A stretch of 64,000 nucleotides of DNA from an uncultured delta proteobacterium (GTDB lineage Bacteria > Desulfobacterota > Desulfobacteria > Desulfobacterales > SG8-13): contig CAWKCK010000018.1 in NCBI GenBank assembly GCA_963848135.1, forward strand, positions 572,938 to 636,937. Direction: 5' to 3'. Below the pieces are notes generated by a model. The model was not told the origin of the DNA. It made no database searches and saw only the letters and a list, made by a program, of their open reading frames with translations. The translations under genes were made by a program, and so were the position numbers. Below, in pieces: positions 11,199 to 35,198 of this stretch (position 1 is its first letter; the number at the start of each line of letters is the position of its first letter).

Positions 11199-11340
11199 TT
11201 CTTGCCAATAAATGAATTTTCAGTTTCCAAGGTTATTCTAAGGTTAGAATCTATCTATCTCAAGGTTCTGAGGTACACTCGCAGTTGCGATTAATAGACA
11301 TAAGCGTGAGTCGGTCAGAATTTGTGTTTTGTTGGAGATA
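11199..11340. repeat. ~140-bp intergenic repeat, copy R1
   Basis: TTCTTGCCAATA at 11199; GCGTGAGTCGGTCAGA..TTTTGTT at 11304; spacing matches R2. Confidence 0.75.
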
Positions 11341-11616
11341 CTAATGGGGTTAAAAGCCACCCGACATGTAGAAATCTTGAACCCTTAATTAACGCCCACG
11401 GATGGAATATAGTGTTGGGTAGGAAATGACCTCCTTAGTATCTATAATTTCATCTCTAAGCCCACCACCTCAATATCTTGTATAGCCCTAAAAATTAAGA
11501 TAAGCGTGGTCTAATACCAACAATCCACGCCTTTTATCTGAAGAGTCCTTGTCAACATTGATACAAAGAGGATGCCCTGACTATCAAGCAAATAATTATA
11601 TACCTGGGCGTCTCCT

Positions 11617-13059
11617 TCAGTCGTGGCTCTCTCCTTCAGGTATATAGGTAACGGTTTCTCCTTTCAACATTTTCAACTTTAGCTGGCGGTTATCATCGTT
11701 GGCCAGGTATAATGTGCGACTTGGAAAAGCAAAGTCGATACCCTCATCATTAAATCTTCTTAATACCATCAGACAGGTTCGTTGCAGCCATTCTTGCATA
11801 TCCCAGTAATTTGCCGGATGATACCAGGCAATCACCGATATATTCAGACTCCAATCATTGAATCCATTAAAGTAAACCCGTGGCGGAAAGTCTGGATGCA
11901 TTCCTTCGTGATTGGCCAGTATTTCCTTTATGATTGATACGGCCTTTTCCACTCTGTCTGGTGGTGTGTCATAGGTTATTGTGATATTAGTTAGCCACCT
12001 GATATGAGGGCGTTTGCCGATATTTTCCAAGCCCGAATTAACAATTTTTTCATTGGGGATCGTCACTAAGTGTCCGGTCAACGTTCGGATACGCGTACTA
12101 CGAAAGCCCACACCCTCAACAACACCATCGTAATTTTCAATCAAGATACGTTCACCAACCTGGAAGGGTTTGTCAAACAGAATGGTCAGAGTACCAAAAA
12201 AATTAGCAATCGAATCCTTGGCTGCCAATGCGATAGCTATTCCACCGATGCCCAGAGAGGCAAGTAAGGGGCCAATATTAACACCGGTTAAATTCTGTAT
12301 GATTAAAAGGCCTCCGATTATGACAATGAAGACCCGCAGAGTCTTGCCGGCTAGCGGGGCCAAGACATCATCAATGGTACTATCCGTTGAGGCAGCCCAC
12401 TTTTTAAGGTGAAAATCCACGATAGATACCAGCTTGAAAATGAACCAAACTATCGCGACGGCCCCACCTAAATCAGCAGCTTTCTGTGCAATGGTAAGAA
12501 CTAAATTGGTTCCATCAGGTTTTCGAAAATGCACAAACAACGGGGTCAGAACAAGATATATTCCATAGATCCATATAAACATTGACAATGGGTTGGCTAT
12601 TGTCTCCAAAAAAAGGTATTTTATTTTTTTTTCTTCTTTTTCTTTTTCTGCTTTTCTCCTTTTGCGATCAAGAACCAGACGCACAATTCGTTCAATTATC
12701 AATACAACAAAAAGCAGTAAAAGACTTAGTATTAGTTTGAGCCACGTAATGCCTGCAAATGCCTTCGCATCTATCCAGCCCCCAATGCGTGAAGATGCTT
12801 GTTGAGTAAAATTATCGATTTGTTGTCCGACTTTTTCACCGGCCACGTCAACCTTTGTAGGCTCTTCAGGTATCTCTTTTGCTGGGAGGTCAGATGGTGA
12901 TTCGGTTTTTGATTTAGTTTCTGCAGACGTTGTCGTTTGGACTTTTTTAGTATTAGATTCGACGCTTTGCCCCCGGGCTGGCAAATAAAAAGTGAGTACT
13001 AAAAAAATTACCAGAATGGGAAATGATATACAGCAAAGTCTTTTTACAGTTAAACACAT
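11617..13059 (-). CDS. MscS family mechanosensitive channel
   Basis: LASLGIGGIAIALAAKD, DKPFQVGE, VGFRSTRIRT, IPN and FAFPS motifs; GGAGG before ATG 13059. Confidence 0.92.
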   Translation of the reverse strand: MCLTVKRLCCISFPILVIFLVLTFYLPARGQSVESNTKKVQTTTSAETKSKTESPSDLPAKEIPEEPTKVDVAGEKVGQQIDNFTQQASSRIGGWIDAKAFAGITWLKLILSLLLLFVVLIIERIVRLVLDRKRRKAEKEKEEKKIKYLFLETIANPLSMFIWIYGIYLVLTPLFVHFRKPDGTNLVLTIAQKAADLGGAVAIVWFIFKLVSIVDFHLKKWAASTDSTIDDVLAPLAGKTLRVFIVIIGGLLIIQNLTGVNIGPLLASLGIGGIAIALAAKDSIANFFGTLTILFDKPFQVGERILIENYDGVVEGVGFRSTRIRTLTGHLVTIPNEKIVNSGLENIGKRPHIRWLTNITITYDTPPDRVEKAVSIIKEILANHEGMHPDFPPRVYFNGFNDWSLNISVIAWYHPANYWDMQEWLQRTCLMVLRRFNDEGIDFAFPSRTLYLANDDNRQLKLKMLKGETVTYIPEGESHD

Positions 13060-13267
13060 TCTCCCCTCCATTTTTACTGATGACCACAAGAAAAAGAGTA
13101 GCAGCTGGTTTTATAGAGAAATAGGCGCCGAATAGCATACCTCAACTGTGAATCCTCATTGCAAATAGAAAAGGCAGACCACAACATCTTGTGTTTACCA
13201 TTTTGTTGCCAAGATAGTGATACATTGAGAGTAACTGGTAAAAACCAGATTCGTCAAGGCTCGTACC

Positions 13268-13410
13268 TTCTTGCCATAACCGTAACTCACAGTCATTACG
13301 CTAAGTGTAACGATACGGTCTGGCAATCTAAGGAAATCGACTATTTAATAGCTCAGAGATCGTAGCAGAGGGCGTGAGTCGGTCAGATCTTGTGTTTTGT
13401 TAGAGGTATA
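13268..13410. repeat. ~140-bp intergenic repeat, copy R2 (most complete)
   Basis: TTCTTGCCA..ACGATACGGTCTGGC..ATAGCTCAGAGATCGTAGCAGA..GCGTGAGTCGGTCAGA..TTTTGTT. Confidence 0.8.
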
Positions 13411-13435
13411 TGCAATTTCATTGGTTTGAGAATCA

Positions 13436-15109
13436 TCATTTCTTTTTATCAGAATTTACTAAATCTTCCTCAATTTTTACGGCCACTATAGTTATGTCAT
13501 CTTCTATTGCAGAATCTTTTTGGAATTGATCCAGGGCAGAAAAGACTGCTTCGATTATTTCCTTAGCTTTTTTAACGGAATTTTTGCGTATGATTTCATA
13601 TAGTCGCTCTTTGCCAAAAATCTCTCCAGCTCGATTGTGCGCCTCCCAGACTCCGTCAGTGCTTAGAACAATGATTTGACCCTTAGCAAGATCCAGTTTT
13701 TCGTTTAACTCATATCGCCAGTTTTTGTCCACACCGAGTGCGATACCATTGCCTTTCAAATCTTCGAATGTATTTGTAGCAGGGTCGTAAAAGATGCCAG
13801 GATCATGCCCCGCACGTACCCACTGTAAACTTTGTTTTTCGGGATCAACGGTTAGATAAAACAGTGTCATAAACTGCCCCGAATCCTCGACATCGCGAAC
13901 CAGTTGATAATTTACATCGGAGATTATTTGTGCGGTGCTACCCGGAAGAGATAAGCGTTGCCGCAATGAAGAACGGGCCGTAGCCATAAGCAGAGCGGAA
14001 GGAATGCCATGGCCTGAAACATCACCAATAGCCACGCCTATCTTTTTATTCTTGGCCTCATCAATTGTAATAAAATCGTAATAATCGCCACCGGTTTCAT
14101 CACAATATATGCTTCTGCCTGCTATATCCAATCCTTCGATTTTCAGATTACCTTTTGGTAAAAGATTCTGTTGGACTTCCATTGCCAGGTCAAGTGATTG
14201 GCGCATCCTGTCTCGTTCTATGAGGCCATCGGTCATTTCGTTAATTACATCGCCGACATATCCGATTTCATCGTTGGAAGTAACTTTAACTCGCGAACCA
14301 AACTTGCCAATCGTTACTTGTTTTAAAACGACCACCATTGCATCCAAGGATTTTTTCAAGTTCAGAGCCACAATCAGGACCAACCCACCACCAATAGCCA
14401 CAACAACCGGAATTAGCATCCACAAACCGGTAGTAAGCATTTCAAGTGAATCGATCGCATTGCGACCGGAAATGGCAACACGATATAGGCTGGTAAGGAT
14501 CGCTAAAAAAGGTATTAGATTGATGGCTACAAAGACCGCAAATAGTCGTACAGTAAGATTGATCCGCCGGGTGCCCTTAACATCGTATAATTTCCCTCTG
14601 GGGAATACATAGGGTGCCAGGTACGATTGTAAAATCCGTTCAAGCAAAAAGAAAGCTATCGTGGTTGATACCAGACCAGTCAATAATGCATCAAACCGGT
14701 TCATACTTATTTCTTGCCACGAAAGACCAAAGTTACGTTCAAAGGCGGCAAAGGTTATCCCTGCCAGAATCCAAGCGGCCATATCCATACCAATAATAAC
14801 AAACGGTTCGTTTAATAATCTTTTTTTAACCCTTGATTCGAGTTCAGAGGATATTGGGGCGTCGGACCACAGTTTTTCATAATAGCCACGAATAGGCCAC
14901 TCGTACAAAATAATAAACATAAAAAATAAAGCAAAGATGGGACCAAAATAGTTGGCAGTACGAATGTGAAACTCAACATATTTATCCGACTGATAGCCTC
15001 GTAAGATAAACTCGTAGATTACATAGAGCAATCCAGCTCCAATGGCTGTTGCCAATAGATTGGCCGTAAACATGGCGTTTTTCAGGCAAAAAAGACGAAA
15101 CCGTGTCAT
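13436..15109 (-). CDS. Membrane HAMP-domain SpoIIE/PP2C (RsbU-like) phosphatase
   Basis: TM helices; HAMP (NDEIG); GGDYYD, GDVSGHG, AGH, TDG and DDIT motifs. Confidence 0.92.
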   Translation of the reverse strand: MTRFRLFCLKNAMFTANLLATAIGAGLLYVIYEFILRGYQSDKYVEFHIRTANYFGPIFALFFMFIILYEWPIRGYYEKLWSDAPISSELESRVKKRLLNEPFVIIGMDMAAWILAGITFAAFERNFGLSWQEISMNRFDALLTGLVSTTIAFFLLERILQSYLAPYVFPRGKLYDVKGTRRINLTVRLFAVFVAINLIPFLAILTSLYRVAISGRNAIDSLEMLTTGLWMLIPVVVAIGGGLVLIVALNLKKSLDAMVVVLKQVTIGKFGSRVKVTSNDEIGYVGDVINEMTDGLIERDRMRQSLDLAMEVQQNLLPKGNLKIEGLDIAGRSIYCDETGGDYYDFITIDEAKNKKIGVAIGDVSGHGIPSALLMATARSSLRQRLSLPGSTAQIISDVNYQLVRDVEDSGQFMTLFYLTVDPEKQSLQWVRAGHDPGIFYDPATNTFEDLKGNGIALGVDKNWRYELNEKLDLAKGQIIVLSTDGVWEAHNRAGEIFGKERLYEIIRKNSVKKAKEIIEAVFSALDQFQKDSAIEDDITIVAVKIEEDLVNSDKKK

Positions 15110-15264
15110 TTTTCCAATAGGGCCTTTATCTGTAGAGTGTGAATCGACAGGATTGGGTTGGAATCAAATTTTAGTTTGATTCAAGAACTATTTAAAGCAG
15201 AAATCAATCGGAATGCTGAATTAGTAGTGATAATATACCCAAAAAACAACAATTTTTAAGTTTA

Positions 15265-15303
15265 TATATTGAGACTATATGGATCTTCTGGGGTGGGTCA
15301 ATA
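15265..15303. repeat. 37-bp direct repeat, copy 1 (copy 2 at ~16429-16465)
   Basis: tattgagactata.gga.ctt.tggggtgggtcaata with 3 mismatches; both copies read TTGACC-N16-TATAGT on the - strand. Confidence 0.85.
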
Positions 15304-15377
15304 CGTAGAACTGGGCCGTCACGATCAGTACGACGCAGGAACGGCGAGCCGGTTCGGTCTCAAGTGGTGTGTTATAT
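15302..15377 (-). other. attC-like integron recombination site
   Basis: ATATAAC directly after the GNAT stop; N5 spacers; bottom-strand stem actgggccg/cggtctcaagt with two bulged bases; ends ...tctacGT. Confidence 0.7.
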
Positions 15378-15379
15378 GT

Positions 15380-16400
15380 TTAGATCATTTTTTTCATAAT
15401 TAAATCATTTTGCAATTCATTCCCCATTCTGAATGGATGCCGTCCTGCTTTTTTAAATCTCATTTTTTTATAGAATGATATTGCATCTATATTTTTTTCC
15501 CACACACCTAACCATACATAATTCTTCTTCATCTCTTTCGCTAACTGAAGTGAAAATTTAACTAGCTTTTTACCTAGTCCTTTTCCTTTGAAGGTCTAGC
15601 AGACCGCAGCTTTTATCGATCGGCCGCGAGTAAATGCGACGGAAGGCCAGGTTCGATTTTGAACGAATGATGAAGAAGGCCGGCACCTGATGGAGCGTAT
15701 AGAGCCTTTTAAAATCCAGATAGCCGCGATCCATGATATAAATCGAACCGATTTCAGCCTCCAGCCGGTCAAGGATGTTTACCTCATGCACCTTGCCATC
15801 GGTAATGGCAATCATAGAGGGAATATTGCCGCGCAAGTCAAGCAGGGTATGTAACTTGATTGCCGCTTTTGTTTTCCGAAATTGCGCCCATGGGAATACG
15901 GAAAGACATAGATCTATGATGGTCGCATCCAAAGCATAGATGGTCTCTTGCAATTGCAGACCAAAATCTTCACCGGCATAGAGTCTGCGGGCTTCATCGA
16001 TCAGAATTTTGGCAAAGTCTCTGTAAATGCGCCAGTCACGTTTTTCATTCGCATCTGCTAATGTGCTTTTTGAGACTTTGCTGCGAATGCCCATGTGATA
16101 AATCTTGATATATATTCTTTCCATTTCAATTGAATCAGTATCATTGATATCTGATTGAGCTGGTGCATCATTGATCTTTAGATATCCAGCCAATTCATTC
16201 TCTGCATACAAAAAGTAGAATAAACTGTTTTTATTATTTAATTCCGCTAATAGCTTTTTCTTATTGAACGCTTCTTGAAGATAAGAATCTATAGTTTCTT
16301 GACTATTCATCGTTCGAAAAGTCTCATCATAGGTTTCGTACCCTATGGCTTGTAATTTATCCAATTCAGTTATCGAGCAAGGCCGTATATTGATATACAT
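15380..16400 (-). pseudogene. PaiA-like GNAT acetyltransferase interrupted by an IS4 transposase fragment
   Basis: N-part ends MERIYIK; C-part TFKGKGLGK..VWLGVWEKN..FYKK..MI* lies at 15380-15597. Confidence 0.88.
15598..16102 (-). mobile_element. 505-bp internal IS4-family transposase fragment, no ends
   Basis: YHMGIRSKVSKSTLADANE..ALDAT..KLHTLLD..MDRGY. Confidence 0.85.
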
Positions 16401-16576
16401 AAACCGATTTCTCCCAGAATCTGTGATATATTGAGACTATAAGGAACTTGTGGGGTGGGTCAATAATTTTGCTTGCTTGATAATCATTTAAAAGGCACCT
16501 CCTAATCGCAAATGACACAGCGATTCGTTATAAAGGGTTAACCCCAATCATAACCCTATAACGAAGGAGGTGCCCT

Positions 16577-17596
16577 ATGGAACTGTACGCCGGTCTGGAT
16601 CTTCATTCAAGAAATACCTACATCGGAATCATGGACGATGCATTGAACCGTGTCTTCAAAAAACGTGTATCCAATGACCTTGACCAAATTCTTCATACTT
16701 TAAAACCCTTCAAAAAACGATTAAAGGGATTTGTTGTAGAGTCCACCTACAACTGGTACTGGCTCGTAGATGGCCTCATGGATGCGAGATATGGCTCTGC
16801 ACACTTGGCCAACCCGTCGGCAATCAAACAATACGAAGGGCTAAAGTACAGTGACGATCAGCATGACGCCTTTTTTCTGGCCCAACTTCTCATACTCGGT
16901 ATTTTGCCCGAAGGCTACATTTACCCAAAGCAACATCGCCCGGTGCGGGACCTGGCACGCAAACGGATGTTTTTAGTCCGGCACAAGACCGCGAACATCT
17001 TGAGCCTGCAATCGCTCATTCAAAGATGCTGTGCAGTAAAAATAAGCACCAGTGACATCCGAAAGATAAACGTCGAAGCATTGGAAAGGTGGCTAAAAGA
17101 AGAGTACCTGATTTTCTCTGCTCAAACCAGTTTGGATACAATCAACTTTCTGAAGCAGAAGATTAAACATTTAGAGAAGGCGATCATACAGAGAGTCAAA
17201 CTCAATAAAGGGTTCAGGCAACTGCTGACAATACCCGGTATCGGTAAAATTATGGCTATGACTATCATGCTGGAAGTGGGTGACATCAATCGTTTTCCAA
17301 AGGTCGGCAATTTTGCTTCCTACTGTCGGTGCGTGCCATCCAAGCGGTTGTCCGACGGAAAAAGCAAGGGGTGTGGCAATCGTAAAAACGGCAATCGCTA
17401 CCTGAGCTGGGCCCTCACTGAAGCCGCTCAATTGGGCCGTCGGTATAATGAACAGTTTAGACGATACTATAACCGCAAGGTTGCTCAGGCCAATACCAGC
17501 CTGGCGACCAAAGCGCTGGGCAACAAACTGGCCCGCATCTGCTACTATATCATGAGAGATCAGGTTCCCTTTCGTGAGGAGCTTCTTGCGCAATAG
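16577..17596 (+). CDS. IS110-family recombinase/transposase
   Basis: GLDLH, VEST and KYSDDQHDA (DEDD motif); TIPGIG; SDGK; GNRYL. Confidence 0.95.
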   Translation: MELYAGLDLHSRNTYIGIMDDALNRVFKKRVSNDLDQILHTLKPFKKRLKGFVVESTYNWYWLVDGLMDARYGSAHLANPSAIKQYEGLKYSDDQHDAFFLAQLLILGILPEGYIYPKQHRPVRDLARKRMFLVRHKTANILSLQSLIQRCCAVKISTSDIRKINVEALERWLKEEYLIFSAQTSLDTINFLKQKIKHLEKAIIQRVKLNKGFRQLLTIPGIGKIMAMTIMLEVGDINRFPKVGNFASYCRCVPSKRLSDGKSKGCGNRKNGNRYLSWALTEAAQLGRRYNEQFRRYYNRKVAQANTSLATKALGNKLARICYYIMRDQVPFREELLAQ

Positions 17597-17900
17597 TTTG
17601 GGACTGCAGCGGTGATCCTTTGCTATTGGTGGTTAAAATCCCTATTGCTTGGTTGGCCACCGCTGCTCTCCCTACAAAATAGATTCAGGCGGGTGTCCGC
17701 TTTTTCGATCTGCCCTTGTCATAAGCTCGCAATGGCTGGCCCGAAAGGAGCCCTATCTCTTGTGACAACCCAATTGGCTTTGACAAGGTACCGATTTTTT
17801 CTGGGGTCTGGTTTCGGACCAGGGGCTTTAGATATTCTCTCTTTGGCCTTGATCCTGATGGGTGCCTGTTAGCAGATTAAGTGACGCTGCATAGCAAACA
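17597..17900 (+). ncRNA. Putative seekRNA / bridge-RNA region
   Basis: Stem gcagcggtg/caccgctgc (17606-17666) encloses target-matching segments; donor-like ATGGGTG at 17858. Confidence 0.55.
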
Positions 17901-18116
17901 AAAAGAAATTTCGGGAGCAGGTAAAAAAAATTGGACGAACGTCGAGCTGAATTTTGTTCCTGCAAAAAATATACCCCTTTTGCGATGGCGTGGTGTTTTT
18001 TGTTGACGGAAGCCTTTTAATGGGTGCCACAGGCACAACTATCGGAAATCATACCACCTGTTACGATATGATCTGGCTATCACAGTCTTTTCAATGATTC
18101 CTGAACTTTCCTTAGA

Positions 18117-19974
18117 GGCAAGTAGCGCGGAGGAGTCTCACCCCTACGCCCTCCAAGAACCGTACGTGACAGTCTCCCGTCATACGGCTCCTACTGTCCA
18201 GCCGAAGGCCGGAAGCCAAATCCCCAGGATGCGAGCAGTCTGGGTTCCCGACGGGCTATACGTCCCAACCAATGGGCCGCCCTTCGCCAATGACCTCGCA
18301 GTCTTTTGTATTTCCGCATGGCCCAACGTACCAATGCATTTTGAATCTGACGTAAGATGGGATAAAGTGCTGTTTTGCGAAATTTGCCATAGTAATTCAA
18401 CCAACCTCTAACCACGGGGTTGATTCGTTTGGCAATATCCTCCAAAGAAGCGGAACTCCACAATTGCAATTTCCACCCTCTTATTTTTGCACCCATCTCT
18501 TTGACGGCTGATTTGCTGACCGCTGGTGTAAAACCCACAAAGCAATTCCGCCCCTTACACAAACGAGCACGAAATTCATAGCCGAGAAAATCAAAACTCT
18601 CGTGCATGTAACTTCCCGGGCGTGTGGCGTTCTTACAATAGACAATCTTCGTCTTCTGCGGACTCAATTTTAACTTACACCGCGCCAGCCGCAGTTCAAT
18701 GGCTCTCAACATAAATTTTGCTTGAAATTCCGTACGGCAATGCACAATGATGTCATCCGCATACCTCGCAAATACAGCAATCGGATGGCTTACTCTCATC
18801 CATTCATCAAACACATGGTGAAGAAAAATATTGGCCAGCAAGGGGCTAATTACACCCCCTTGGGGTGTGCCCTTTTCTCTTTCGATTAGGCTGCCATCTG
18901 CCAGCTGTGCTGGAGCTTTTAGCCACCTCTCTATGTAGAGCAATATCCACCTGCTATTCGTATGTTTCCTCACTGCATGTAACATCAGATTGTGGTCAAT
19001 TTCATCGAAAAACCCTTGGATGTCTAAATCCAACACCCAGCCATACCTCCAGCACCGCTTGCGAACCACGGCCACCGCATCAAGTGCCGATTTGCCGGTT
19101 ATATAACCATAAGAGTCCGCATGAAATATCGGTGCCACTTGTGGCTCCAGATACATCTTGACCACCATTTGCGCCACACGGTCCGAGACAGCTGGTATAC
19201 CCAACCTTCTGGACCGCCCATCACGCTTGGGAATATCTACCGTACGAACTGGCGGTGGGAAATAGCTTCCCGAGGACATGCGATTCCAGACTTTATAAAG
19301 ATTGTCTTTGAGATCGACCTCAAAGTCTTCAATCGACTGCCCATCGACGCCCGCCGCACCGCGGTTTGCTTTTACCCGACAAAACGCCTCCCAAACGGCA
19401 TGCTTGGAAATACTATACGGCTTTGTTTTAGTCACCGGTTCCTCCCATCTCTGGTTGACCTTGTCACTAAAACCGGACAGCACAACCCCTTCGCTCCATC
19501 TGCATTACACAGACTTCATCACTACTTCGGGTTGTTCCGCCCCCGTGTCCCGCATCGGTACTCTCACGCTTGTGGGTCCGCCACTTGCGTTTCTCCCTTA
19601 ACATCGAGACGACAGGTTCCCACGTTCCATACAAAAGCCTGAATCAAGGTCATGCCATCTTTATGCCGGACGCCGCCCAGACAGTAAGCAGGTGGCCTCT
19701 GGGCTTATCCTGGGATTCTGCTAGTACCCCAGTTTTGACGTCATCTCTGCCTTTTCGACACCTCAGCAATGGTTCGCTCGCGCTCATCTCCTTGATTCAT
19801 ACCTGATCCCGTCAAGCGAGACCTTTTCCTTAACGCTCACCACCCTGGCTCTTTACCAGCGCAGCTTAAGGTGGTTTGAAACCTGCTCCTGCAAGCCGGT
19901 TCCGAGGGGCCTACCCTCATCTTTTGTACAGTTACACACACTCTATTTATATTTAAAGTGCGCTCGTGGCACAC
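18117..19974 (-). mobile_element. Group II intron (RmInt1-like, probably bacterial class D)
   Basis: 5' GTGTGC at 19974; domain V GAGCCGTATGACGGGAGACTGTCACGTACGGTTC; domain VI ends ...CTACTTGCC. Confidence 0.92.
18191..19435 (-). CDS. ltrA: Group II intron reverse transcriptase/maturase without an endonuclease domain
   Basis: GAAGVDG, GTPQGGVISPLLANI, RYADD, FDFLG and GWLNYY motifs; GTG start after GAGG (ORF open to 19483). Confidence 0.93.
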   Translation of the reverse strand: MTKTKPYSISKHAVWEAFCRVKANRGAAGVDGQSIEDFEVDLKDNLYKVWNRMSSGSYFPPPVRTVDIPKRDGRSRRLGIPAVSDRVAQMVVKMYLEPQVAPIFHADSYGYITGKSALDAVAVVRKRCWRYGWVLDLDIQGFFDEIDHNLMLHAVRKHTNSRWILLYIERWLKAPAQLADGSLIEREKGTPQGGVISPLLANIFLHHVFDEWMRVSHPIAVFARYADDIIVHCRTEFQAKFMLRAIELRLARCKLKLSPQKTKIVYCKNATRPGSYMHESFDFLGYEFRARLCKGRNCFVGFTPAVSKSAVKEMGAKIRGWKLQLWSSASLEDIAKRINPVVRGWLNYYGKFRKTALYPILRQIQNALVRWAMRKYKRLRGHWRRAAHWLGRIARREPRLLASWGFGFRPSAGQ

Positions 19975-23731: not shown

Positions 23732-23776
23732 TGGGAACCGCAACATTATAAATGTACCTTAAAAAGGAGATCTCCC

Positions 23777-26318: not shown

Positions 26319-26486
26319 TTGAATTATCAATAAACGAAATCAACTTCCCATTGCGGAAACATAAAGAAGGCAGGACCTCTAACGAGACTCTGCCCTTTTT
26401 TGACTGGTACCCCCCCTACCAGCCCCCTATAAACACAAAAAGGGCGCTCTACCCGTATACCGGATAAACCGCCCTTCCCAAAATCT

Positions 26487-26765
26487 TTACAACTTAACAG
26501 CCGCGCTGAGTTTCTTCCCGGCTTTGAATTTCACAGCATTTCTGGCCTTGATCTTGATGGCTTCGCCGGTCTGCGGGTGCCGCCCCTTGCGCGCCTTCCG
26601 GCGTGTTTTTTGGAATGTACCGAAGCCCACTAGCGTCACCCGGCTGTCCTTCTTTTTAAGAGCCTTGGTGACCCCGTCCGTAAAGGATGCAAGGGCTTTT
26701 CCCGCCGCAGCCTTTGAAATCCCCGCGTCCTTTGCCATCTACTCGACCAATTCAGCTTTCGTCAT
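26487..26765 (-). pseudogene. hup: HU family DNA-binding protein with an amber stop at codon 9
   Basis: MTKAELVE*MAKDAGISK..LVGFGTF..GRHPQTG; TAG at 26739-26741. Confidence 0.85.
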
Positions 26766-26772
26766 CTAATTT

Positions 26773-27848
26773 CCTGCGTCGGGGCCGTCTGTGGACGAAG
26801 AACAATATCCTTACCATCACCGGTGATGAATCCTATGTGGGTCGGTACTACTTTAACAAAACCAGTGGGCGTGAAAAGAAGCCGAACCCGAAATCTGAAT
26901 GGATACTCATCCCCTTAAAGCCGATTATAGATGAGTCCACCTGGAACCGGGCCAAATCTCTGAAGGAGAGTCGCAATCCGATCACGGCCCGGGTCAATCC
27001 CTCGGCCACAACCTCAAAAACCCTTCTTACCGGTATAGCCAAGTGCGGCCTGTGCGGGGCCAGTTTCGCTCTTGAAACCGCTAAAGGTGGTAGGTACACC
27101 TATTACAACTGTGCCAATTATTTCCGCAAAGGCAAAGCCACCTGCCCGGGCCAGCGCATCGCCGCCGACAAGCTGGAGGCGGCGGTCATTGACCACCTAA
27201 CTGCCCGATTGTTTTCCAGGAGCCGAATCAAGAAGCTCCTTGCAGGCGCGCACAAACAACTCGGTCGTGCAAGCAAAAAAGCCGATGCAAGCCACAATCG
27301 GTTGATTGTTGATTGGTCAACTCAATGATGTAAAGCACCGGTTGACCCGGCAATACGAGGCCATCGAATCAGGCTAACTGGAGCTTGAGCTTGTCGCCGA
27401 ACGGATCCGGGAGCTGAAGAACAAAAAGGACACGCTCGAGAGTTCCATCGACCGATTGAGCCGAACGAAGCCCCCTCCCCCGCATCTATTCCGGGACGAA
27501 ACAATCGTGCAGTTTCAAGAAATTGTAGACGGCGCGTCCCGCAATGGGTCCAACCTCCGGACAGTGAAGCGCTATCTGCGATTGTTCATAGAGAGGATCA
27601 CGATCAGGCTGCCGGTGGTGGAAATTGAGGCGAACACGAAGGGTATTTTGGCGACCATACAAAATAAAAAAGCTGTAAGAGCCGAAGTTCTTACAGCAAG
27701 TATTCCTTGGCTCACCGAGGGCTACGAATGTGAGAACATAAAATACGCATTTATTTTATATGGTTACGATGATAGGGTTATTCCCAGACCAAAGGTTTCC
27801 CAATTATCCGGTCAAATTCCTTCATGTAGACACCACCGAGCAATTTAA
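26773..27848 (+). pseudogene. Large serine recombinase, 3' part, frameshifted (copy 1)
   Basis: LLTGIAKCGLCG zinc ribbon and YYNC; 26773-27713 is a near-identical copy of 47983-48915. Confidence 0.85.
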
Positions 27849-27933
27849 CACGAAAATTTGAATTCAAATACAATCTGCCAAACTATATATACCATCTGTA
27901 TTTATCTGTGCTTTGGCTACTATGCAGATACTT

Positions 27934-27983
27934 ATATGATATCATAAGTTTCGCAGATTCTCCGCTGACCACAACATCTTGGG
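27934..27983. repeat. 50-bp repeat with an inverted copy at 46513-46562
   Basis: atatgatatca.aagtttcgcaga.tctc.gctgaccacaa.atcttggg, 4 mismatches. Confidence 0.8.
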
Positions 27984-28344
27984 GTGCTCCGGAGTTGGCA
28001 TCAGGTCAAAATAATGGCAAGATATTTTTACCAATGTATTACCTTGTGGTATTGACAACTGAATCATTATTGGGTTATTCGTTTTAAGGGGAGATCCAGA
28101 TCGATTCCGACATCGACACTAATTAAAAACTGAAGCTCATTTAACTAAACCACTTAATTTCTAACTACCTAGTCCACATCCTATTCAGTTAGCCACTTCC
28201 CTTTCTCATTAATAAAAAACTTCGATTTACAGGTTAACCATAACCTTTTGGCTGTTGGATGTTCTCTGGCACTGGAGGAGGTGATGCCAAAATATTTCTA
28301 AATACATTGGATATCCAATTTTTTGAAAAAGGAGGATTGCATTC

Positions 28345-29043
28345 ATGCATGAACAACAAAAAAGCAATTTCAAAATAATCGTACAATTGACCAATCGAAT
28401 GTCATTGGCAATCTTAGTAGGTATAATATCTTTATTTTTATTGGCCGAATCAAAAACTCAAGCGGCAACTTTGCTCATGGGTGAAGGGACTGGCCTTCGT
28501 GGCTATGATGGCACAGTAGGCGTTCAGTTTACCGTGAAATCTGTTCCCTTACTGGTAACAAGTATAGGTCTTTGGGATGGACCAAACCCCAGTGGGACCG
28601 AAGGAGACGGGCTGCAAGTAGGAGCAGACGTCGGCATATGGGACAACAGCGGTAGCCTTTTGGCAAGTGTATCAATCTCGGCAGGTAGCATGGGTTCTTT
28701 CGTTGACGGATCAAGTGCGTCCAGTGTCTTCGCTCCTTTAATTACACCAGTAACTCTAAGTGCAGACTCAACTTACATAATCGGTGCATTTTATACGAGC
28801 GGAGGCAATGCTTTTACTAATAACCCTAGTGCAACAGCGTTATTCAGCACTTCGGTAAACGTAACAGCTGGTAAATTCAATAACAATAGTAGCAGCTTAG
28901 CTTTTCCAAACTTATCTGATCCCAATAATCTTTTTGGTTCAGCGACGATGAGGTTTTCAGAGGTACCTATCCCGGGTGCAGTCTGGCTGCTTGGCACTGG
29001 TTTGGTCTGTGTTATAGGATTTAGAAGGAAATTTAAGAAATAG
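28345..29043 (+). CDS. VPLPA-CTERM (PEP-CTERM-like) exosortase substrate
   Basis: Signal peptide; C-terminal VPIPGAVWLLGTGLVCVIGFRRKFKK. Confidence 0.85.
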   Translation: MHEQQKSNFKIIVQLTNRMSLAILVGIISLFLLAESKTQAATLLMGEGTGLRGYDGTVGVQFTVKSVPLLVTSIGLWDGPNPSGTEGDGLQVGADVGIWDNSGSLLASVSISAGSMGSFVDGSSASSVFAPLITPVTLSADSTYIIGAFYTSGGNAFTNNPSATALFSTSVNVTAGKFNNNSSSLAFPNLSDPNNLFGSATMRFSEVPIPGAVWLLGTGLVCVIGFRRKFKK

Positions 29044-29065
29044 ATTCGGTCGACATTAAAATAAA

Positions 29066-29100
29066 AAGCAGGGCCAGTAAAGGCTCTGCCTTTTTATTTT
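29066..29100 (+). terminator. Rho-independent terminator
   Basis: gcagggcc-agtaaa-ggctctgc followed by a T run. Confidence 0.6.
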
Positions 29101-29643
29101 GAAATATTACCAATGATGGATTCTAATAATAGACTCAATGTATCTGCTGATATGTTTGAAAGTGTCAATTAGAAAATACTGGTCCATCCCTATTTTGACA
29201 TGGGGCATATTTAATCCTCCCGGCTCAAGAGGGCGATTTTTAGCGCGGATGATACACGCTCCTGGGTTTTCAGGGGTAAGTACTTCGGAGCTGTCCTCTC
29301 ATTATTAACGGGCCAAGCAACCAGGATTCTCCTTTAGACCTCTTGAAGCTGGAAAAACCGGTAACGGGCGCATAACGGTTTGGCTTTCATATATCGCACA
29401 TTGGTAATCCTGCTGACGGCATTTAAGAAGTATTATAGATTTTCGTGCTGGCATTTTATAGGTCCAGGCCGCTTCAAAACCGCCCTAGCCCCGGCGGATT
29501 TTTACCACTGGATATGCTCTGAAGGGATGTCCCAGATAATAGCTGCTTGGGGTTGGATCAACCGAAAACGATAAATTGAACCCACATAGGGTGCCCGGTT
29601 AACCACTGGTCAACATGCACTTGTATTTGTTGGGTGACTTCAT

Positions 29644-30295
29644 TTACCAGAAGCTGATTTTTGCGAGCCCATGATAAAAGCCCTTTATCCAATGCCTCTT
29701 ACCGCTGTAGGTGATCCCATGACGCAGTAAAAATGATAGGAGTCGTTGGCGAGCTTTACGTTCGATGCGCCTGATGTCATCCCTGCAGCGGACAAGATCC
29801 CTGATGGCTTCATCTTCAACGGTCGGTACATAAATGCTGGTCAACTCACCGGCCCGATATAACCTTACCAGGTTGATGGCATCGCGACGGTCGGTTTTGA
29901 TCCGATCGCCACTTCTTCTGGGAATCATGGAAGGGGCAACCACAGAGCAGCTGATGTTTTTGGAAGCAAGGTGCCGGTAAATCTGGTAGCCACATGGTCC
30001 GGCTTCGTATACAAATCGAAGCTCGATATTGGTGCCTTTTAACTTCTCAATTAGCTTGTCCAGTGCATCGAGAGTGCTGTTAATTTTGCCATAGGATCTC
30101 ACCTTACCGTTTGACCGGCTGTTTGTTATTGCAGCATCTATGGTATTTTTGTGGACATCCAAACCAACATATAATATTTTCTTTTTCATGGTCTGCCTCC
30201 TTGGTTATGGCTCTGAGCCGTTATGACCCAATTAGGTCCCACAGCTTAACCCACGTCGCAAGGGGCAGACCATACTCTTTCAAACATTATGTCTA
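29644..30295 (-). mobile_element. Truncated IS110-family element: N-terminal transposase 29644..30189 plus structured leader
   Basis: VGLDVHK, YEAGPCG and KTDRRDA motifs; leader stem ggtctgcc/ggcagacc. Confidence 0.85.
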
Positions 30296-30328
30296 TTAAG
30301 CGAAACTTTTAAGATCTTCGAAACAAAG

Positions 30329-30393
30329 AAGGCCAACTACCAGATGTTGTAGTTGGCCTTTTTCCCTTTAAATCTACGATAAGATCAATCTAT
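30329..30393. repeat. ~65-bp hairpin-containing repeat with an inverted copy at 40664-40727
   Basis: aaggccaactac-N8-gt(a/g)gttggcctt plus a shared flank. Confidence 0.8.
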
Positions 30394-30525
30394 CTTTATA
30401 AAATTGGTCCCCTTAATAGTGCAGATAGTGATAAACGTATCGCAACTCAGCGTTTTGTCGGTTAAAGTTGAAGCTTTATTTGAAGAGTCACAGATTGAGT
30501 CTTGGTTATTGCAAATTATTTATTT

Positions 30526-31530
30526 CTAAAAAGAACCGAAATATAATATCAAGCTCTCCACCAGTTCCGCCATGAAGCCGTAGTCCAGTTTTTCCATGGT
30601 ATCTAAAGACGTATGATAATGGGGATTGCGGTAAAACGCGGAATCGGTAATCATTACGGCTTTAAACCCCTGATCCCAGAACGACGCGTGATCGCTGAGT
30701 CTTACTGTCGGCAAAATCCGACCATTCAAGGGAACACTGAGTTTCACAACTGGCAATTCCCGGTTTTTGGAGAATTCTTTGACGAGTGCATTTGTGAACT
30801 CTTTTGATTTGGTGTTGCCGACAATTCCGATAAAATTGCCTTCCTTGGGATAACCGAATAACATCAGCGGAAACGGGTATCCCTGGCAACCCTTTTCATA
30901 GCAGGCATAACCCACCATCTCCAGACAGATCATGCCATCAATTTGTTCGTTATCTTTACGAACCTTTCTGGCATACACCCGGCTGCCCATGTAACGAGTA
31001 CCGTAGACCGGCGGTTCCTCTAAGGCAAAAGAAACAAACTTGACGGATAGATCCAGTTTTTGGCTATCGATCATCGATTTCAGCAGTCGTGCGGTTTCCA
31101 ACTGCACGGCCACCGCACTGGCATTATCATCGGCGCCCACTGTGCCAATCACGGAATCATAATGGGCACCAACCACAAATCGATTTTTGGCCCGGCTATC
31201 GGAAGTTATTTCGGCAACGACATTGGAAACGGTGCTGTTCTGATAGTTGTATGGTTCCCGGTGCACCGGTACACCCAGGTTTTGATAAAACGATTCAATG
31301 TAATCCGCCGTTCTGTTGAGATTTTCAGGAACCCCCAAACTGCGCTCGCCAATGGTGACGGTGAGTTCCTTCAAATGAGCTTTAACCCTATCAGCAGTAT
31401 GTTCAATGTCGATCATAACGTTGTTCCTGTTTTGTGCCAGAGCGGTAATATTCCATGAAGATGCGTGCATCATTAGAATATTGATGAAGATGACACAGCT
31501 GTATCTGAATATAAACATAACAGTTTCCAC
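30526..31530 (-). CDS. M28 family peptidase (start uncertain)
   Basis: GAHYD, GADDNAS, LEEPP, LEM, SDH and YHT motifs. Confidence 0.9.
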   Translation of the reverse strand: METVMFIFRYSCVIFINILMMHASSWNITALAQNRNNVMIDIEHTADRVKAHLKELTVTIGERSLGVPENLNRTADYIESFYQNLGVPVHREPYNYQNSTVSNVVAEITSDSRAKNRFVVGAHYDSVIGTVGADDNASAVAVQLETARLLKSMIDSQKLDLSVKFVSFALEEPPVYGTRYMGSRVYARKVRKDNEQIDGMICLEMVGYACYEKGCQGYPFPLMLFGYPKEGNFIGIVGNTKSKEFTNALVKEFSKNRELPVVKLSVPLNGRILPTVRLSDHASFWDQGFKAVMITDSAFYRNPHYHTSLDTMEKLDYGFMAELVESLILYFGSF

Positions 31531-31943
31531 AATATGTCATACCAACCAAACTACTGATCAAAAAATTGGTTTAGTTCATGATTCTTGTTACCATTGAATC
31601 ATCTTGCCAATCGGACACTCTTGTGTCGTGTCGCTTCAATTAAACATCCCATCCAGCAGCCAATACCCGCTCAACGTTCACAGCGTGCAACCACATCCCT
31701 CTCTTAACCTTTTCGGGTCCTCCGGAATATATAAAAGGCTGTGGGTCGGCAACGCCCAGGATTTTCACACTTAAAAATTTTCTTAATTATATACAATAGG
31801 ATCCTCAGGATCCGGATACCATCGCAACACTTACAACTTCAACAAACAGGGACCGAGGCTAATTTTATGCAGGCCGAGGTCGATAGGATAATTTTTTATT
31901 TTAGAAATGTTATAAACCTTTGACGTGAACTGACGGCAGAAAA

Positions 31944-32048
31944 GTTACGGTACGAAATGGCTATCACTTACCCATATCAGAGGGTAGAACTTTTGTTAGA
32001 TAGCAGATAGAAAAACTTCGGTTCTGTTCAAGCTTTGTTGGAGATATC
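31944..32048. repeat. ~140-bp intergenic repeat, degenerate copy R5
   Basis: gttacg.ta.ga..tggctatcac-N19-gaacttt..ttagatagcag aligns without gaps to 18060-18116 joined to 19975. Confidence 0.7.
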
Positions 32049-32097: not shown

Positions 32098-32568
32098 TTA
32101 TTTAATTTTCGTCATTTCGATTTTATTAATAGACGTCGGTCGTTTAAATGTGCCTTTAATCTTATTTAAATTTTCTTCCATACTAAAAATGAACCAATAT
32201 TTTTCATGACGGCCAAATTCAATCTGCAAGTTTTCAGGCTTTACAATCGCCTTGTATCTCTCATAGCCCGCTGGCACATTGTAATACCCTTTCATCTCTC
32301 CTTGGCAGTAAATAACTTTTGCTTCTTTAGAATTAATTTCTTCCACAACCAAGACTGATTCTACGCCATCAATACCCCATTCTCCCTCCCAAACTCCAGA
32401 AAATGCGGCTATCTTCTTTGGGACATCTTTACCACATGCGATAATTTTTATGTCGTCTGGGAGAGGAACATCTACATTTATTGTTTTTATTTCATCGGCA
32501 TATATAATTCCGTATCCTAAGATTAGAATAATGCAGACAAATAAAAAAAAAACTTGTGTCTTTTTCAA
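32098..32568 (-). CDS. Hypothetical exported protein
   Basis: 156 aa; signal peptide; AAFSGVWEGEW. Confidence 0.65.
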   Translation of the reverse strand: MKKTQVFFLFVCIILILGYGIIYADEIKTINVDVPLPDDIKIIACGKDVPKKIAAFSGVWEGEWGIDGVESVLVVEEINSKEAKVIYCQGEMKGYYNVPAGYERYKAIVKPENLQIEFGRHEKYWFIFSMEENLNKIKGTFKRPTSINKIEMTKIK

Positions 32569-32748
32569 TTCGCACCTCTTTTCAGAAAGGCTGATTTGGC
32601 TATATCACAACTTTTTTTATTGTCCTTTAAACCTTTGAAGTGCTGGAGGTATCTGAAGTGAGAAAAAAAGTTATTCCAGTTCAATTTTATTCCAAATCAT
32701 TGACATACGTTTACCCCTTCCACAATCGATTATCTCTTAATTTTTCGT

Positions 32749-33216
32749 CTACCTCCTTTTTAATGTTAAAGTTCGAGTTGTTGTTGCTCCTTTTTCTTTC
32801 CACAATCTTATTATCACTATTTCGTTACCATCTTGCCTGATCTCTGCTTGACTGGGTGCCCAAATAGGATTCCATGTCGCAGAATTTTCAACGTCATAAA
32901 AGTAAACCTCATCAATCACATTACCATTTATTTTTCCTTTTATTTTTTCTTTATTCTTTCCAGCGAACCTATCTCCATTTAATAGATAAATTCCCACAAA
33001 TTGATTACCATTCTGCGAAATCTTTACAATGTCTTCTAAAGTTCCCCATCCACCAGTATCAAAAGCTGAATTCCATTCTCCATTTAGATCGTAAACCACT
33101 TGCCCGCTTTCTAATTTTACCGTATTTGGCATTCCCTCCTTGAGTGGATTGTCCATTTGGGCTCCTACCGTAGATGACAGAATGCAAAATACCAAAAACA
33201 ATATCCCCTTTTTCAT
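32749..33216 (-). CDS. Hypothetical exported protein
   Basis: 155 aa; signal peptide; GAGGAGG RBS. Confidence 0.65.
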   Translation of the reverse strand: MKKGILFLVFCILSSTVGAQMDNPLKEGMPNTVKLESGQVVYDLNGEWNSAFDTGGWGTLEDIVKISQNGNQFVGIYLLNGDRFAGKNKEKIKGKINGNVIDEVYFYDVENSATWNPIWAPSQAEIRQDGNEIVIIRLWKEKGATTTRTLTLKRR

Positions 33217-33493
33217 AACGCCCCTCCTCTTAGTGATGCAGGTACAAGGTTACCAAATCACAAAGAACACGGGTTGCTAATTCGGCTTCAATGTCGGTCT
33301 TTTTAGAGATTATCCATGTCTCTGGAAACTAATTTTTGGGTACGTATAAACAATGATATCAATAATATATCAGGCTGGAATAAAGGTGAGCTGGAACTGA
33401 GAAAGCACCAGTAGGAGAGGGTATGCGCCATGCACAGAAACTATAGGTAGTCTCAGCCTGATGAAGCATTGAAGAATGATTTAACCTTATTTA

Positions 33494-35013
33494 CTCAACT
33501 TTCTGGATTAGATTTGCGAGGCAGAATTATGGTCTAATTATTTGAAATCATGAAGAAATAAATTGAAGAGCCCCGTCTTTTGATTTATAATGGATTTGGC
33601 ATAATTCATAATAATATCAAAAAGAAAGGGCTCAAATGGACCATACCAACATTGCCTCCGAATCTCAAGGAAACATTCACGTTCAAAGCAAAATTGATGA
33701 CTTTTTCGACCGATTCAGACTGGGCACCCTTCTGCACCGCTGTGGGGTACGAAAACGCCACGGTCATAGTGTTCGCTCTTTGACACAAGCCATATTCACA
33801 CTGCCATTTGTCGGTCAGAACTTCTTCCGCGGCATTGTTATCAACCAGGATCTTCCCTTCGGCAAAGATGCGGCCTATCAGTTGCTTAAAGGAACAACCT
33901 ATAACTGGCGTCGATTGCTTCTTTGCCTCGGACGTCGTCTGTTCGCTTTTTTCGACAGGCTAACAAGCAAAGATAGAGAAACGGTTCTCATCATTGATGA
34001 CAGTCCTTACGATCGCTCCAGATCCAAAATGGTTGAACTGCTGTGCCGCGTCTGGGATCATAGTACGGGCCGTTATTTGAGAGGCTTTCGGATGCTCACC
34101 GTATGCTGGTCCGACGGTGCCAGTTGCCTGCCGTTGGACTTCTCCCTGCTCTCCTCGGCCGATTCGAAAAAGCGTTTGTGCGGCAGTCAAAAACCTTTGG
34201 ATAAACGCTGCTGTGCGCATCAACGCAGAAAAGAGGCGACGGTTAAGGCCACCGCGCATCTTGAAAACATGGTCAAACGCATACGGTCTGCTGGTATCTG
34301 TGCAAACTATCTTCTGATGGACAGCTGGTTCACGATGCCCGCTACCGTTACGGCCTTGGCAGAACATATTGATGTCGTCGGCATGGTGAAAAAGTCCTCC
34401 AAGATTTTCTACCGCTACAACGGGCATGCCATGGATCTGATGAATATCTATGGCAAATTGAAGAAACGACGGGGACGGGCCAAGGTATTGGCCAGCACCC
34501 TGGTGCAACTCAAAGATGGTCGGCAGGTTAAACTGGTCTTTGTCCGGGATAAACGCAAAAAGGACTGGCTGGCGCTGCTAACAACCGATATCAGTCTGCC
34601 CGATGCAGATGTTGTCCGCATCTACGGTAAGCGTTGGGATATCGAAGTGTTCTTCAAAATGGCCAAACAACATTTAAAACTGGCCAAAGAAATCCAGTGC
34701 CGTGACTTTGACGCCCTGATTGCTCATACGTCCATCGTGTTCATGCGGTATATGTTTTTGGCCTATCAGTGCCGAACCGAGACAGATCATCGAACTTTTG
34801 GAGAGCTTTTTTACCTCTGCTGTGATGAAGTCAGTGATATCTCGTTCATTGAGGCGCTTTACCGGATTTTGACTCTGGCGAGCAATCAATTGAGAAATCT
34901 TGGCAACTTCTGTGAAAAAACAGCATCGGCATTCTTTGATGCTATCATGGACACCGCGCTGCAGTGTGTCGGCTTGTCAAAGAACAACTTGGCTACGAAC
35001 ACCGAAAGTTGAG
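33494..35013 (+). mobile_element. IS4-superfamily element (IS701/ISH3-like), intact
   Basis: IRs ctcaactttc / gaaagttgag; 7-bp TSD TTATTTA. Confidence 0.9.
33636..35012 (+). CDS. DDE transposase
   Basis: IIDDS, LMDSWF and YGKRWDIEVFFK motifs. Confidence 0.93.
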   Translation: MDHTNIASESQGNIHVQSKIDDFFDRFRLGTLLHRCGVRKRHGHSVRSLTQAIFTLPFVGQNFFRGIVINQDLPFGKDAAYQLLKGTTYNWRRLLLCLGRRLFAFFDRLTSKDRETVLIIDDSPYDRSRSKMVELLCRVWDHSTGRYLRGFRMLTVCWSDGASCLPLDFSLLSSADSKKRLCGSQKPLDKRCCAHQRRKEATVKATAHLENMVKRIRSAGICANYLLMDSWFTMPATVTALAEHIDVVGMVKKSSKIFYRYNGHAMDLMNIYGKLKKRRGRAKVLASTLVQLKDGRQVKLVFVRDKRKKDWLALLTTDISLPDADVVRIYGKRWDIEVFFKMAKQHLKLAKEIQCRDFDALIAHTSIVFMRYMFLAYQCRTETDHRTFGELFYLCCDEVSDISFIEALYRILTLASNQLRNLGNFCEKTASAFFDAIMDTALQCVGLSKNNLATNTES

Positions 35014-35090
35014 TTATTTATTTCAATTTTTAGAATAGAGTCAAGAAAAATGAATATGCTGGTAAAAGAATCATTCTTTTCGGTTGAGCT

Positions 35091-35198
35091 TTCTTGCCAA
35101 TAGACTAATTATCGAAAATTGCGTCAAGTATCACGATACCGTCTGGCTAAATTCAGGAAATTCGCTGATTGATAGATGCCGAAAAATAGCAGATAATT
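35091..35198. repeat. ~140-bp intergenic repeat, copy R6, cut by IS481
   Basis: TTCTTGCCAATAG..ACGATACCGTCTGGC..AGGAAAT..TAGCAGA. Confidence 0.75.

Follow-up and report, generated by a model that had tools for sequence, protein, structure and literature searches.

The 64,000-nt window analysed here (contig C18, positions 572938-636937, of G000, the 6.0-Mb source genome of an uncultured Desulfobacterales bacterium) contains a row of unrelated genes that are separated by copies of a repeat. The core of this repeat, here called the unit, is about 107 bp long, and elsewhere in the genome it encloses a gene for a small Xer-like tyrosine recombinase. In our judgement, the evidence is evenly balanced on whether copies of the repeat serve as junction sites in a gene-cassette array system distinct from integrons, while we lean with moderate confidence towards the unit being a recombinase-linked junction site of cassette arrays. 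A more comprehensive proposal is tentative. Desulfobacterales-type bacteria may hold a second, independently evolved gene-capture platform, with about 90 double-stranded three-block sites per genome in about 10 arrays, a slippage-controlled Xer-like recombinase inside the site, cassettes with their own promoters, terminators, and even riboswitches, and a guild of site-specific parasites (IS110 elements, a two-recombinase transposon, and group II introns) that parallels the guild of attC in integrons.

To our knowledge, single genes are stockpiled as cassettes by just one machine that is well understood, the integron, and IntI and the folded attC sites determine how far it reaches. If the proposal is true, cassette platforms evolved more than once, the large accessory-gene stores of sediment sulfate reducers would be opened to analysis, and a new double-strand recombinase-and-site pair could be used for genome engineering. 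No account of the repeat or of Xer-linked cassette arrays in Desulfobacterales was found in the full-text literature, with most subscription journals lying outside the search.

Anatomy and arrangement of the repeat

The genome was scanned with an nhmmer profile that was iterated from copy R2 (R1 to R6 are the copies numbered in the first-pass annotation of the window) and that converged on a 110-position consensus. This profile gave 88 matches at E<1e-3 and 91 matches at E<1e-2 in G000, whereas no match at E<10 was obtained in the genome shuffled within 1-kb blocks. A comparison with shuffled DNA had been set beforehand as a check, and this one excludes a chance origin of the repeat. The window was scanned without filters by a covariance model that uses sequence only and was trained on 45 full copies. 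All six copies of the first-pass annotation were recovered at their places, and the window contains five copies that are full or interrupted, besides a half copy and a stub.

Three near-invariant blocks occur at fixed spacing in the unit, namely CTTGCCA (profile positions 4-10), the central block (44-64), and ATAGCAG (97-104); the mean column identity of the 107-bp unit is 59%. The central block of about 21 nt has the form GATAC-N7-CTATC, i.e., a short inverted repeat around a 7-bp spacer, and CTATC/GATAG-like words recur in both arms at fixed distances. CCA and TAGCA are 89 nt apart in R2 and 90 nt apart in R1 (where TAGAC replaces TAGCA), in R4, in R6, and, after subtraction of an intron, in R3. 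The constant spacing that had been described for R2, R3, R4, and R6 is therefore real, and R1 shares it. Two further motifs had been counted among the core blocks and do not belong there: GCGTGAG.CGGTCAGA and TTTTGTT lie in a facultative downstream module, which is present in R1-R3 and in 6 of the 47 full copies genome-wide. Two alternative modules can follow TAGCAG, often ending in G/TTGGAG or a close variant (the slash marks a boundary, here and below), and an optional promoter-like module (TTGACC, 16 nt, TATAGT), read towards the genes, is found on the CTTGCCA side.

All copies in the window are on the plus strand. R1 (11190-11308, or 11190-11336 with the downstream module A; E 7e-9) has a divergent right arm, and its module A ends in TTTTG/TTGGAG. 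R2 is a complete unit (13257-13379, or 13257-13406 with module A; E 6e-23) with the outer edge TTTTG/TTAGAGG at 13399/13400. The splitting of R3 and R4 that had been noted was confirmed, and the interrupting elements could be named. The left stub of R3 (16472-16479) ends with CTTG and is cut by an insertion sequence (IS) of the IS110 family at CTTG/CCA. The body of R3 (18027-18116; model match 18017-18096, E 2e-13) comprises CCA, the left arm, the central block, and the right arm; a group II intron follows just before TAGCAG, and the tail (19975-20062) consists of TAGCAG, module A, and a further module (TTTACAGTATCTG...). R4 (21549-21849; match 21734-21849, E 4e-21) is composed of a CTTG stub (21549-21552), the 5' ~196 nt of the same IS110 element (21553-~21744), and the unit body, which starts with CCA at 21745. 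R5 (31941-32047; match 31941-32017, E 0.0014) is a half unit with central block, right arm, and TAGCAG, and it ends in CTTTG/TTGGAG; a possible CTTGCCA block around 31600, 330 nt upstream of R5, is not significant (31594-31613, E 9.6). R6 (35084-35201) is complete and is the top-scoring copy of the window (E 3e-24, 80.5 bits). A seventh, disrupted site is marked solely by CTTGCCA at 35278-35284 and at 37445-37451.

Three other identities of the repeat were rejected. It is not a decayed open reading frame (ORF), since its conservation has no 3-base periodicity (0.70, 0.65, 0.71) and a stop-free frame exists in just 24 of 45 copies. It is not a known RNA family, as the Rfam matches at gathering scores in the window were the intron, a tRNA, and a c-di-GMP riboswitch, and none at the repeats. 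A known plasmid-borne element was also rejected, because neither the unit nor the Xer gene was matched in a plasmid collection.

The copies in G000 fall into about 10 clusters on five contigs. All 67 pairs of adjacent copies that are less than 8 kb apart are co-oriented, and their median spacing is 1512 nt. Between the copies, 80 ORFs of at least 80 aa are antisense to the repeat and 36 are sense, many of the latter being parts of mobile elements. Exactly one antisense ORF and no sense ORF was found in 31 of the 67 intervals. The arrangement thus has the two features by which cassette arrays of integrons and of their integrase-less clusters (CALIN) are recognised, co-orientation and genes bounded by the repeat. 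Relative to the direction of the genes, the unit lies upstream of each gene, and terminator-like hairpins of the preceding gene stand before the unit. The cassettes are 1-3 kb long and have promoter-like, terminator-like, and riboswitch parts of their own.

A recombinase gene nested in the unit

Five units of G000 are 1.06 kb long, and fragments of such units also exist. These long units open with unit positions 1-64, continue with a Xer gene and a terminator hairpin, and close with unit positions ~44-107. Because the two unit halves overlap at the central block, the Xer gene has a copy of this block on either side. The gene runs in the direction of the repeat, against the cassette genes, and its product has about 280 aa. 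An example is L007:15259-16089, minus strand (genomes and loci are given by our running labels, G and L). The short Xer matched the XerA, XerD, and XerC models over the whole length, with scores below the cut-offs (122 bits versus 220), and the integron-integrase model with 56.6 bits versus a cut-off of 265. Tyrosine recombinases are marked by a catalytic domain with the pattern R..H-x-x-R..H..Y; inspection of the translation revealed the motif HELRRH and a C-terminal RY.

In G000, the Xer gene begins in one frame and goes on in another after a run of nine A residues. A run of eight or nine A residues was found in all 15 loci inspected, down to about 58% identity; it is located ~50-60 nt after the start codon and separates the two frames. 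Its conservation at this place suggests that programmed slippage could control the recombinase.

The nested layout is also present in G010, G029, and G036. Among 72 loci of other records that were fetched with the Xer protein, 13 had this layout, 8 of them with both unit halves and 5 with one half. By eye, it is kept down to about 64% protein identity: the gene is preceded by the left block and by a central-block end that resembles a -10 element, and it is followed by the central block, the right arm, and TAGCAG. Around distant Xer homologues, a duplication of the central block was not significant in local alignments.

Repeat and recombinase gene tend to occur together. Among 61 genomes, including G000, 20 contained the repeat and 18 the Xer gene; both were present in 12 genomes, the repeat alone in 8, the Xer gene alone in 6, and neither in 35. 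Outside the family, the Xer gene was found in 4 of 5 genomes with the repeat versus 6 of 37 genomes without it. Co-occurrence with one recombinase family had been named in advance as support for a gene-capture system, and it was seen, though imperfectly. The genomes compared are kin, and these counts are therefore indicative only and overstate independence.

Close homologues of the short Xer (64-87% identity) were also seen at L039, L048, L082, L069, L087, and L090. The titles of these six records are of Acidobacteriota, Chloroflexota, Bacteroidota-type, Nitrospirae, Thermotogota, and Gammaproteobacteria, so that either horizontal transfer or binning errors account for them.

Single-recombinase Xer modules, such as XerS/difSL, resolve chromosome dimers at one site per chromosome, which lies beside the gene. 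The system of G000 resembles them in having a short Xer-type gene directly beside the presumed site. It differs in that about 90 sites occur in arrays and the gene stands between two copies of the central block. A second comparison is with the rAID-1 clusters of Bacteroidales (Ross et al., bioRxiv 10.1101/471110). According to that preprint, these clusters combine a recombinase of the XerD family, co-directional genes, and repetitive intergenic sequences, and its authors call them integron-like. The criteria given there are a XerD-like recombinase in 5' position with 44% or more identity to the B. fragilis reference, at least two co-directional genes, and a G+C content of at most 41%; one recombinase gene is located at the 5' end of the array, and immunity genes and a low G+C content are characteristic. 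By description, the two systems are alike in the XerD/Xer-type recombinase, the co-directional arrays, and the repetitive intergenic DNA. They differ in that the recombinase gene of G000 is nested in a junction unit in mid-array and runs opposite to the cassette genes, and its cargo is varied (channel, phosphatase, surface proteins) rather than consisting of immunity genes.

Mosaic units, gene turnover and competing explanations

The left and right arms of the unit assort independently, and the breakpoints gather at the central block. When the 45-copy alignment was scanned by maximum chi-square, 49 of 989 pairs had values above 15, compared with 0-6 in 20 column permutations, and 36 of the 49 breakpoints were in or at the edges of the central block. 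BLAST alignments between flanked copies had starts that cluster at positions 41-54 and ends that cluster at positions 57-65. Also, the distance correlation was low across the centre (r 0.17-0.23) in comparison with the right arm (0.66) and the left arm (0.34).

The array of the window lies beside a core block with tRNA and aspartyl-tRNA synthetase (AspRS) genes. In the sister species G006, an array of 11 co-oriented units is found beside the same core block, and none of the cassette ORFs of the window is present in it; the sole matches were an intron reverse transcriptase (RT) and a distant recombinase. In G007 and G001, no unit occurs within 18 kb of this block. A DNA-level comparison of the array with five sister species yielded matches only to ISs, the repeat, and paralogues. 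G007 has a homologue of the PP2C-type phosphatase gene of the R2-R3 interval between two units, and its homology with the window sets in at R2's central block.

The closest metagenome relatives of this PP2C cassette (L111-L113) are 87-91% identical at the DNA level. Beyond the junction that they share, a unit combined with other modules is found in L112 and L113, and no unit in L111. A match to the unit profile was found in just 2 of the 78 metagenome loci of the cassette, which are mostly short contigs, and no clean cassette swap was seen among the 78.

In the mechanism that we propose, the unit would be read by a protein as double-stranded DNA. The small Xer-like recombinase, readable only across the A run, would recombine units with one another, and the crossover would most likely be located at the central block. 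That a crossover at this block is made by this Xer in particular is conceivable, and we rate it somewhat below an even chance. Blocks in which a gene, equipped with promoter and terminator of its own, stands between one arm and the other could in this way be excised, inserted, and reshuffled. The array of the window has no resident Xer gene and would therefore be served in trans by the Xer of other arrays. It has been colonised by elements that home to fixed positions, i.e., IS110 elements at CTTG/CCA, a two-recombinase transposon at CTTGCCA, and group II introns.

The first-pass annotation had already proposed a recombination site of a gene-capture system. This idea fits the co-orientation of the copies, the mosaicism of the arms, the nesting of the recombinase gene and its joint occurrence with the repeat across genomes, and the gene turnover in G006. 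A number of observations weigh against it. In the material compared, neither capture nor excision was observed, and neither was a circular form or a cassette swap between strains. Breakpoints are found not only at the central block, but also at CTTGCCA and TAGCAG, so that all three classes lie in the most conserved blocks, and ordinary homologous recombination between repeats can generate such breakpoints too. The inverted symmetry of the central block is weak (4-5 bp). The homology with L111-L113 spans from 13399-13415 to 15212-15281; its first limit coincides with the outer G/TT word of the downstream module, that is, with the outer junction edge and not with the central block. Similarly, the five Xer units are homologous up to the outer unit ends (~1-4 and ~103-107), and their homology does not stop at the central block, which fits a whole unit that spreads. 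Only two of the five full Xer units in G000 are free of stops beyond the A run. G007 has 55 unit matches and no Xer gene at E<=1e-40, the six genomes with the Xer gene alone show no unit match, and no local repeat arrays were found around the distant Xer genes L044, L083 (of the cultured Desulfosarcina variabilis), and L068.

Several of these points lead to the main rival explanation, in which the unit is a miniature derivative; an element-end site had been named in the first-pass annotation as well. The 1.06-kb Xer unit would be an autonomous element, the 107-bp repeat would be its gene-less remnant after a deletion from one central-block copy to the other, and units would spread whole, through insertion or through gene conversion, to intergenic positions in accessory islands, with capture not being their function. 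Miniature inverted-repeat transposable elements (MITEs) and REP/RAYT-type families likewise have many short non-coding copies and a few copies with an enzyme gene that is flanked by the repeat. The exact end of the Xer-unit homology at the outer unit ends, the composition of the 107-bp unit from a left and a right half that overlap at the central block, the decay of many Xer copies, and the occurrence of the same PP2C block with a unit (L112) and without one (L111) beyond the shared junction are all as expected under this explanation. Random intergenic insertion would, however, not produce 67 of 67 co-oriented pairs, a fixed orientation relative to the genes, and confinement to about 10 clusters, and it leaves the independent assortment of the arms unaccounted for. 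Terminal inverted repeats, which define MITEs, are lacking, as the ends CTTGCCA... and ...ATAGCAG are not complementary, and no target duplication was noticed around whole units, though no systematic test was made. The candidate enzyme is a Xer-like tyrosine recombinase instead of a DDE or HUH enzyme, and the copies are strictly co-oriented and restricted to arrays, in contrast to MITEs and REP/RAYT families. We therefore regard the miniature derivative as unlikely, and as the strongest competitor nonetheless. A purely regulatory role is less likely than that. The unit could be a long operator or upstream activating region of island genes, with one regulator bound at the CTATC/GATAG words; it is located upstream of each gene, about one third of the copies abut the promoter-like module, terminator-like hairpins of the previous gene precede it, and a LuxR/MalT-type regulator gene lies at the end of the array in the window. 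Yet 107 bp with 59% identity at 91 places before unrelated genes far exceeds known operators, the promoter-like matches do not rise above those in shuffled sequence, and neither the nested recombinase with its duplicated central block nor the mosaic arms nor the turnover of genes at a syntenic location would be explained. We consider this role improbable.

The least probable explanation, to which we give hardly any credence, is a degenerate integron with units that are divergent attC sites of a CALIN. The layout is cassette-like, GTTGGAG- or GTTAGAG-type words were found by motif search at the outer edge of 10 of 47 units (GTTGGAG-like words occur in about 6% of random 80-mers), YAAC words are present in many left arms, and attC is a known homing target of IS110-family elements and group II introns (PMC3001079). 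The folding of the unit speaks against it. The consensus fold of 47 copies was a single 4-bp stem on either strand, eight folds of window copies had z values from -1.27 to +1.18, and 10 units taken from the left arm to the outer GTT word had a mean z of 0.05 and no end-to-end pairing in any of the minimum free energy folds. The two ends of a copy did not complement each other better than they complemented the ends of other copies (p 0.14), and left arms without YAAC carry the same outer GTT word, which gives no sign of covariation between the core words R'' (RYYYAAC) and R' (GTTRRRY) that pair in attC. With no fold signal, and hence no single-strand hairpin with paired R and L boxes, the unit is not attC-like. 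Both negatives of the first-pass annotation, that the repeat is neither attC-shaped nor a CRISPR repeat, hold. An integron integrase over the cut-off is not encoded in the genome; the TIGR02249 model had 19 matches, the best of them with 93.5 bits versus 265. This best match is a 57-residue C-terminal fragment in a 78-aa open frame (C3:901293-901463, L001), far from any repeat copy, and may be a relic of a true integron. Finally, the length of the cassettes (1-3 kb) and the promoter-like, terminator-like, and riboswitch parts that they carry do not agree with a degenerate integron.

The preferred reading as a junction site of cassette arrays thus describes a system that resembles integrons and CALIN without being one. 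As described in PMC4889954, these also have long co-oriented rows of mostly single, unrelated genes with one repeat family between them, a repeat-linked tyrosine recombinase, arrays without a recombinase gene nearby, and content that differs between species at one chromosomal spot. In both systems, the repeat also attracts IS110-family elements and group II introns. The differences concern the site, the recombinase, and the cassettes. The unit is unfolded and has three blocks that are conserved in sequence and spacing, whereas the R and L boxes of attC are conserved in structure; the recombinase of G000 is of a short Xer type with its gene inside the site, whereas the integron gene is located beside attI; and the cassettes of 1-3 kb have their own expression signals and are distributed over about 10 arrays per genome.

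Elements homing to the unit and gene content of the window

The presence of specialised parasites at the repeat, which the first-pass annotation had put forward, is well supported for three kinds of elements. The IS110-family element in R3 (16480-18026, plus strand; ORF 16577-17596) is antisense to the cassette genes. Its ORF has the Pfam domains DEDD_Tnp_IS110 and Transposase_20 and passes the family model NF033542 (189.5 bits versus a cut-off of 140); a DEDD transposase and one fixed target are the marks of the IS110 family. All eight full copies in G000 are inserted at CTTG/CCA, and in six of the eight a recognisable unit follows.

The group II intron of R3 (18117-19974, minus strand; RT/maturase ORF 18191-19483) is located just before TAGCAG and has the same direction as the cassette genes. 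It has both ribozyme domains (RF01999, 114.9 bits; RF00029, 54.3 bits) and an RT/maturase ORF (TIGR04416, 411 bits versus a cut-off of 300), as is characteristic of group II introns, its 5' end is GTGTG, and its class can be given as far as group-II-D1D4-2 of Rfam. Five intron 3' ends were found in G000. Three of these abut profile-detected units, one lies between a right-arm remnant and a downstream module, and no unit was seen at the fifth. At least three of the five introns, and probably a fourth, are therefore inside a unit or a unit remnant. For the intron at 546 kb of C18, a near-identical uninterrupted copy on contig 17 represents the empty site, and the insertion is exactly at GATACG/TTGGAG.

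The two loci share a block from one CTTGCCA to the next (C17:1233104-1233936 and C18:546284-549344), which is 99% identical and consists of a unit, one small antisense ORF, and the promoter-side flank; the C18 copy additionally carries the intron, and a two-recombinase unit comes next. CTTGCCA itself is therefore a duplication or exchange boundary.

The third kind is a 2.16-kb unit with two tyrosine recombinase genes and 23-nt inverted ends, which occupies the seventh site of the window (35285-37444, or 35278-37451 with flanks, plus strand; genes 35375-36541 and 36468-37355). CTTGCCA is present on both sides in 5 of 5 such units in G000. They were found in none of 15 same-genus genomes, although 13 of these carry the repeat. 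The two-recombinase unit was therefore rejected as the enzyme of the system, and we read it as a parasite of the site.

Homing of the same two kinds of elements is known from integrons: PMC3001079 describes IS1111-attC insertion sequences and group IIC-attC introns, with the ISs antisense and the introns opposite to the cassette genes. The situation in G000 is alike in that both kinds occupy one fixed position of a cassette-junction repeat, with the IS again antisense, and it differs in that the target is not attC and the R3 intron runs with the cassette genes. The fixed-position insertions are natural test cases for target choice by IS110 guide RNAs and by group II introns in a repeated target.

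The genes in the window are arranged as follows. The R1-R2 interval contains a gene for an MscS-type mechanosensitive channel with MS_channel domains (11617-13089, minus strand). In the R2-R3 interval, the gene for the membrane PP2C/SpoIIE-type phosphatase (Pfam SpoIIE; 13436-15109, minus strand) is accompanied by a transposase-like gene with a DDE_Tnp_1 Pfam domain (15570-16400, minus strand). A GNAT gene had been predicted beside the phosphatase gene, and none was found there; SpoIIE was the only Pfam match, and the ORFs within 15109-15570 have at most 50 aa. The transposase-like gene stands between two promoter-like modules on the minus strand, which were found by pattern match and are no commoner in the region than in shuffles. 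One is located upstream of the phosphatase gene (15264-15303; TTGACC, 16 nt, TATAGT at 15301-15274) and the other next to R3 (16426-16465; TTGACC/TATAGT at 16463-16436). They form a 40-nt direct repeat with 93% identity, too long for a target duplication.

The R3-R4 cassette (20161-21306, minus strand) encodes a 356-aa protein with a weak PEP-CTERM-type match (NF033554, E 6e-4, below the cut-off). Directly upstream of this gene is a c-di-GMP-I riboswitch (21224-21306, minus strand; RF01051, 52.8 bits, gathering score 35), which is followed by a terminator-like hairpin (21234-21210). The R5-R6 interval holds two small ORFs of 156 and 155 aa (32098-33216, minus strand), for which the domain and family scans gave no match, and also an IS.

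The copies had been said to bracket one or two unrelated, co-oriented genes. This is true for the MscS, PP2C, and PEP-CTERM-like intervals and fails for R4-R5, a 10-kb interval with mostly plus-strand genes and IS fragments that is not cassette-like. A patch in this interval (22176-31530) contains an IS1595 transposase, a TetR regulator, a CheR-like methyltransferase, a gene of the choloylglycine hydrolase family, a truncated serine recombinase gene, a DUF4082 gene, an N-terminal IS110 fragment, and an M28 peptidase, and it looks like a separate insertion into the array. The LuxR/MalT-type regulator gene lies at the end of the array, and core genes (tRNA, AspRS, histidyl-tRNA synthetase, IlvD) start near 48.9 kb of the window.

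Two further small repeats were observed next to copies of the unit. Just after R1, a stretch (11339-11445) that contains a 31-nt imperfect inverted repeat has 84-97% matches at several loci (C3, C17, C2) and represents a small repeat family of its own. A small palindromic element (35199-35273), situated between R6 and the CTTGCCA that follows, has near-identical pieces at C2:290038-290097 (98%), in C10, and at C18:478683, and is probably another miniature mobile element.

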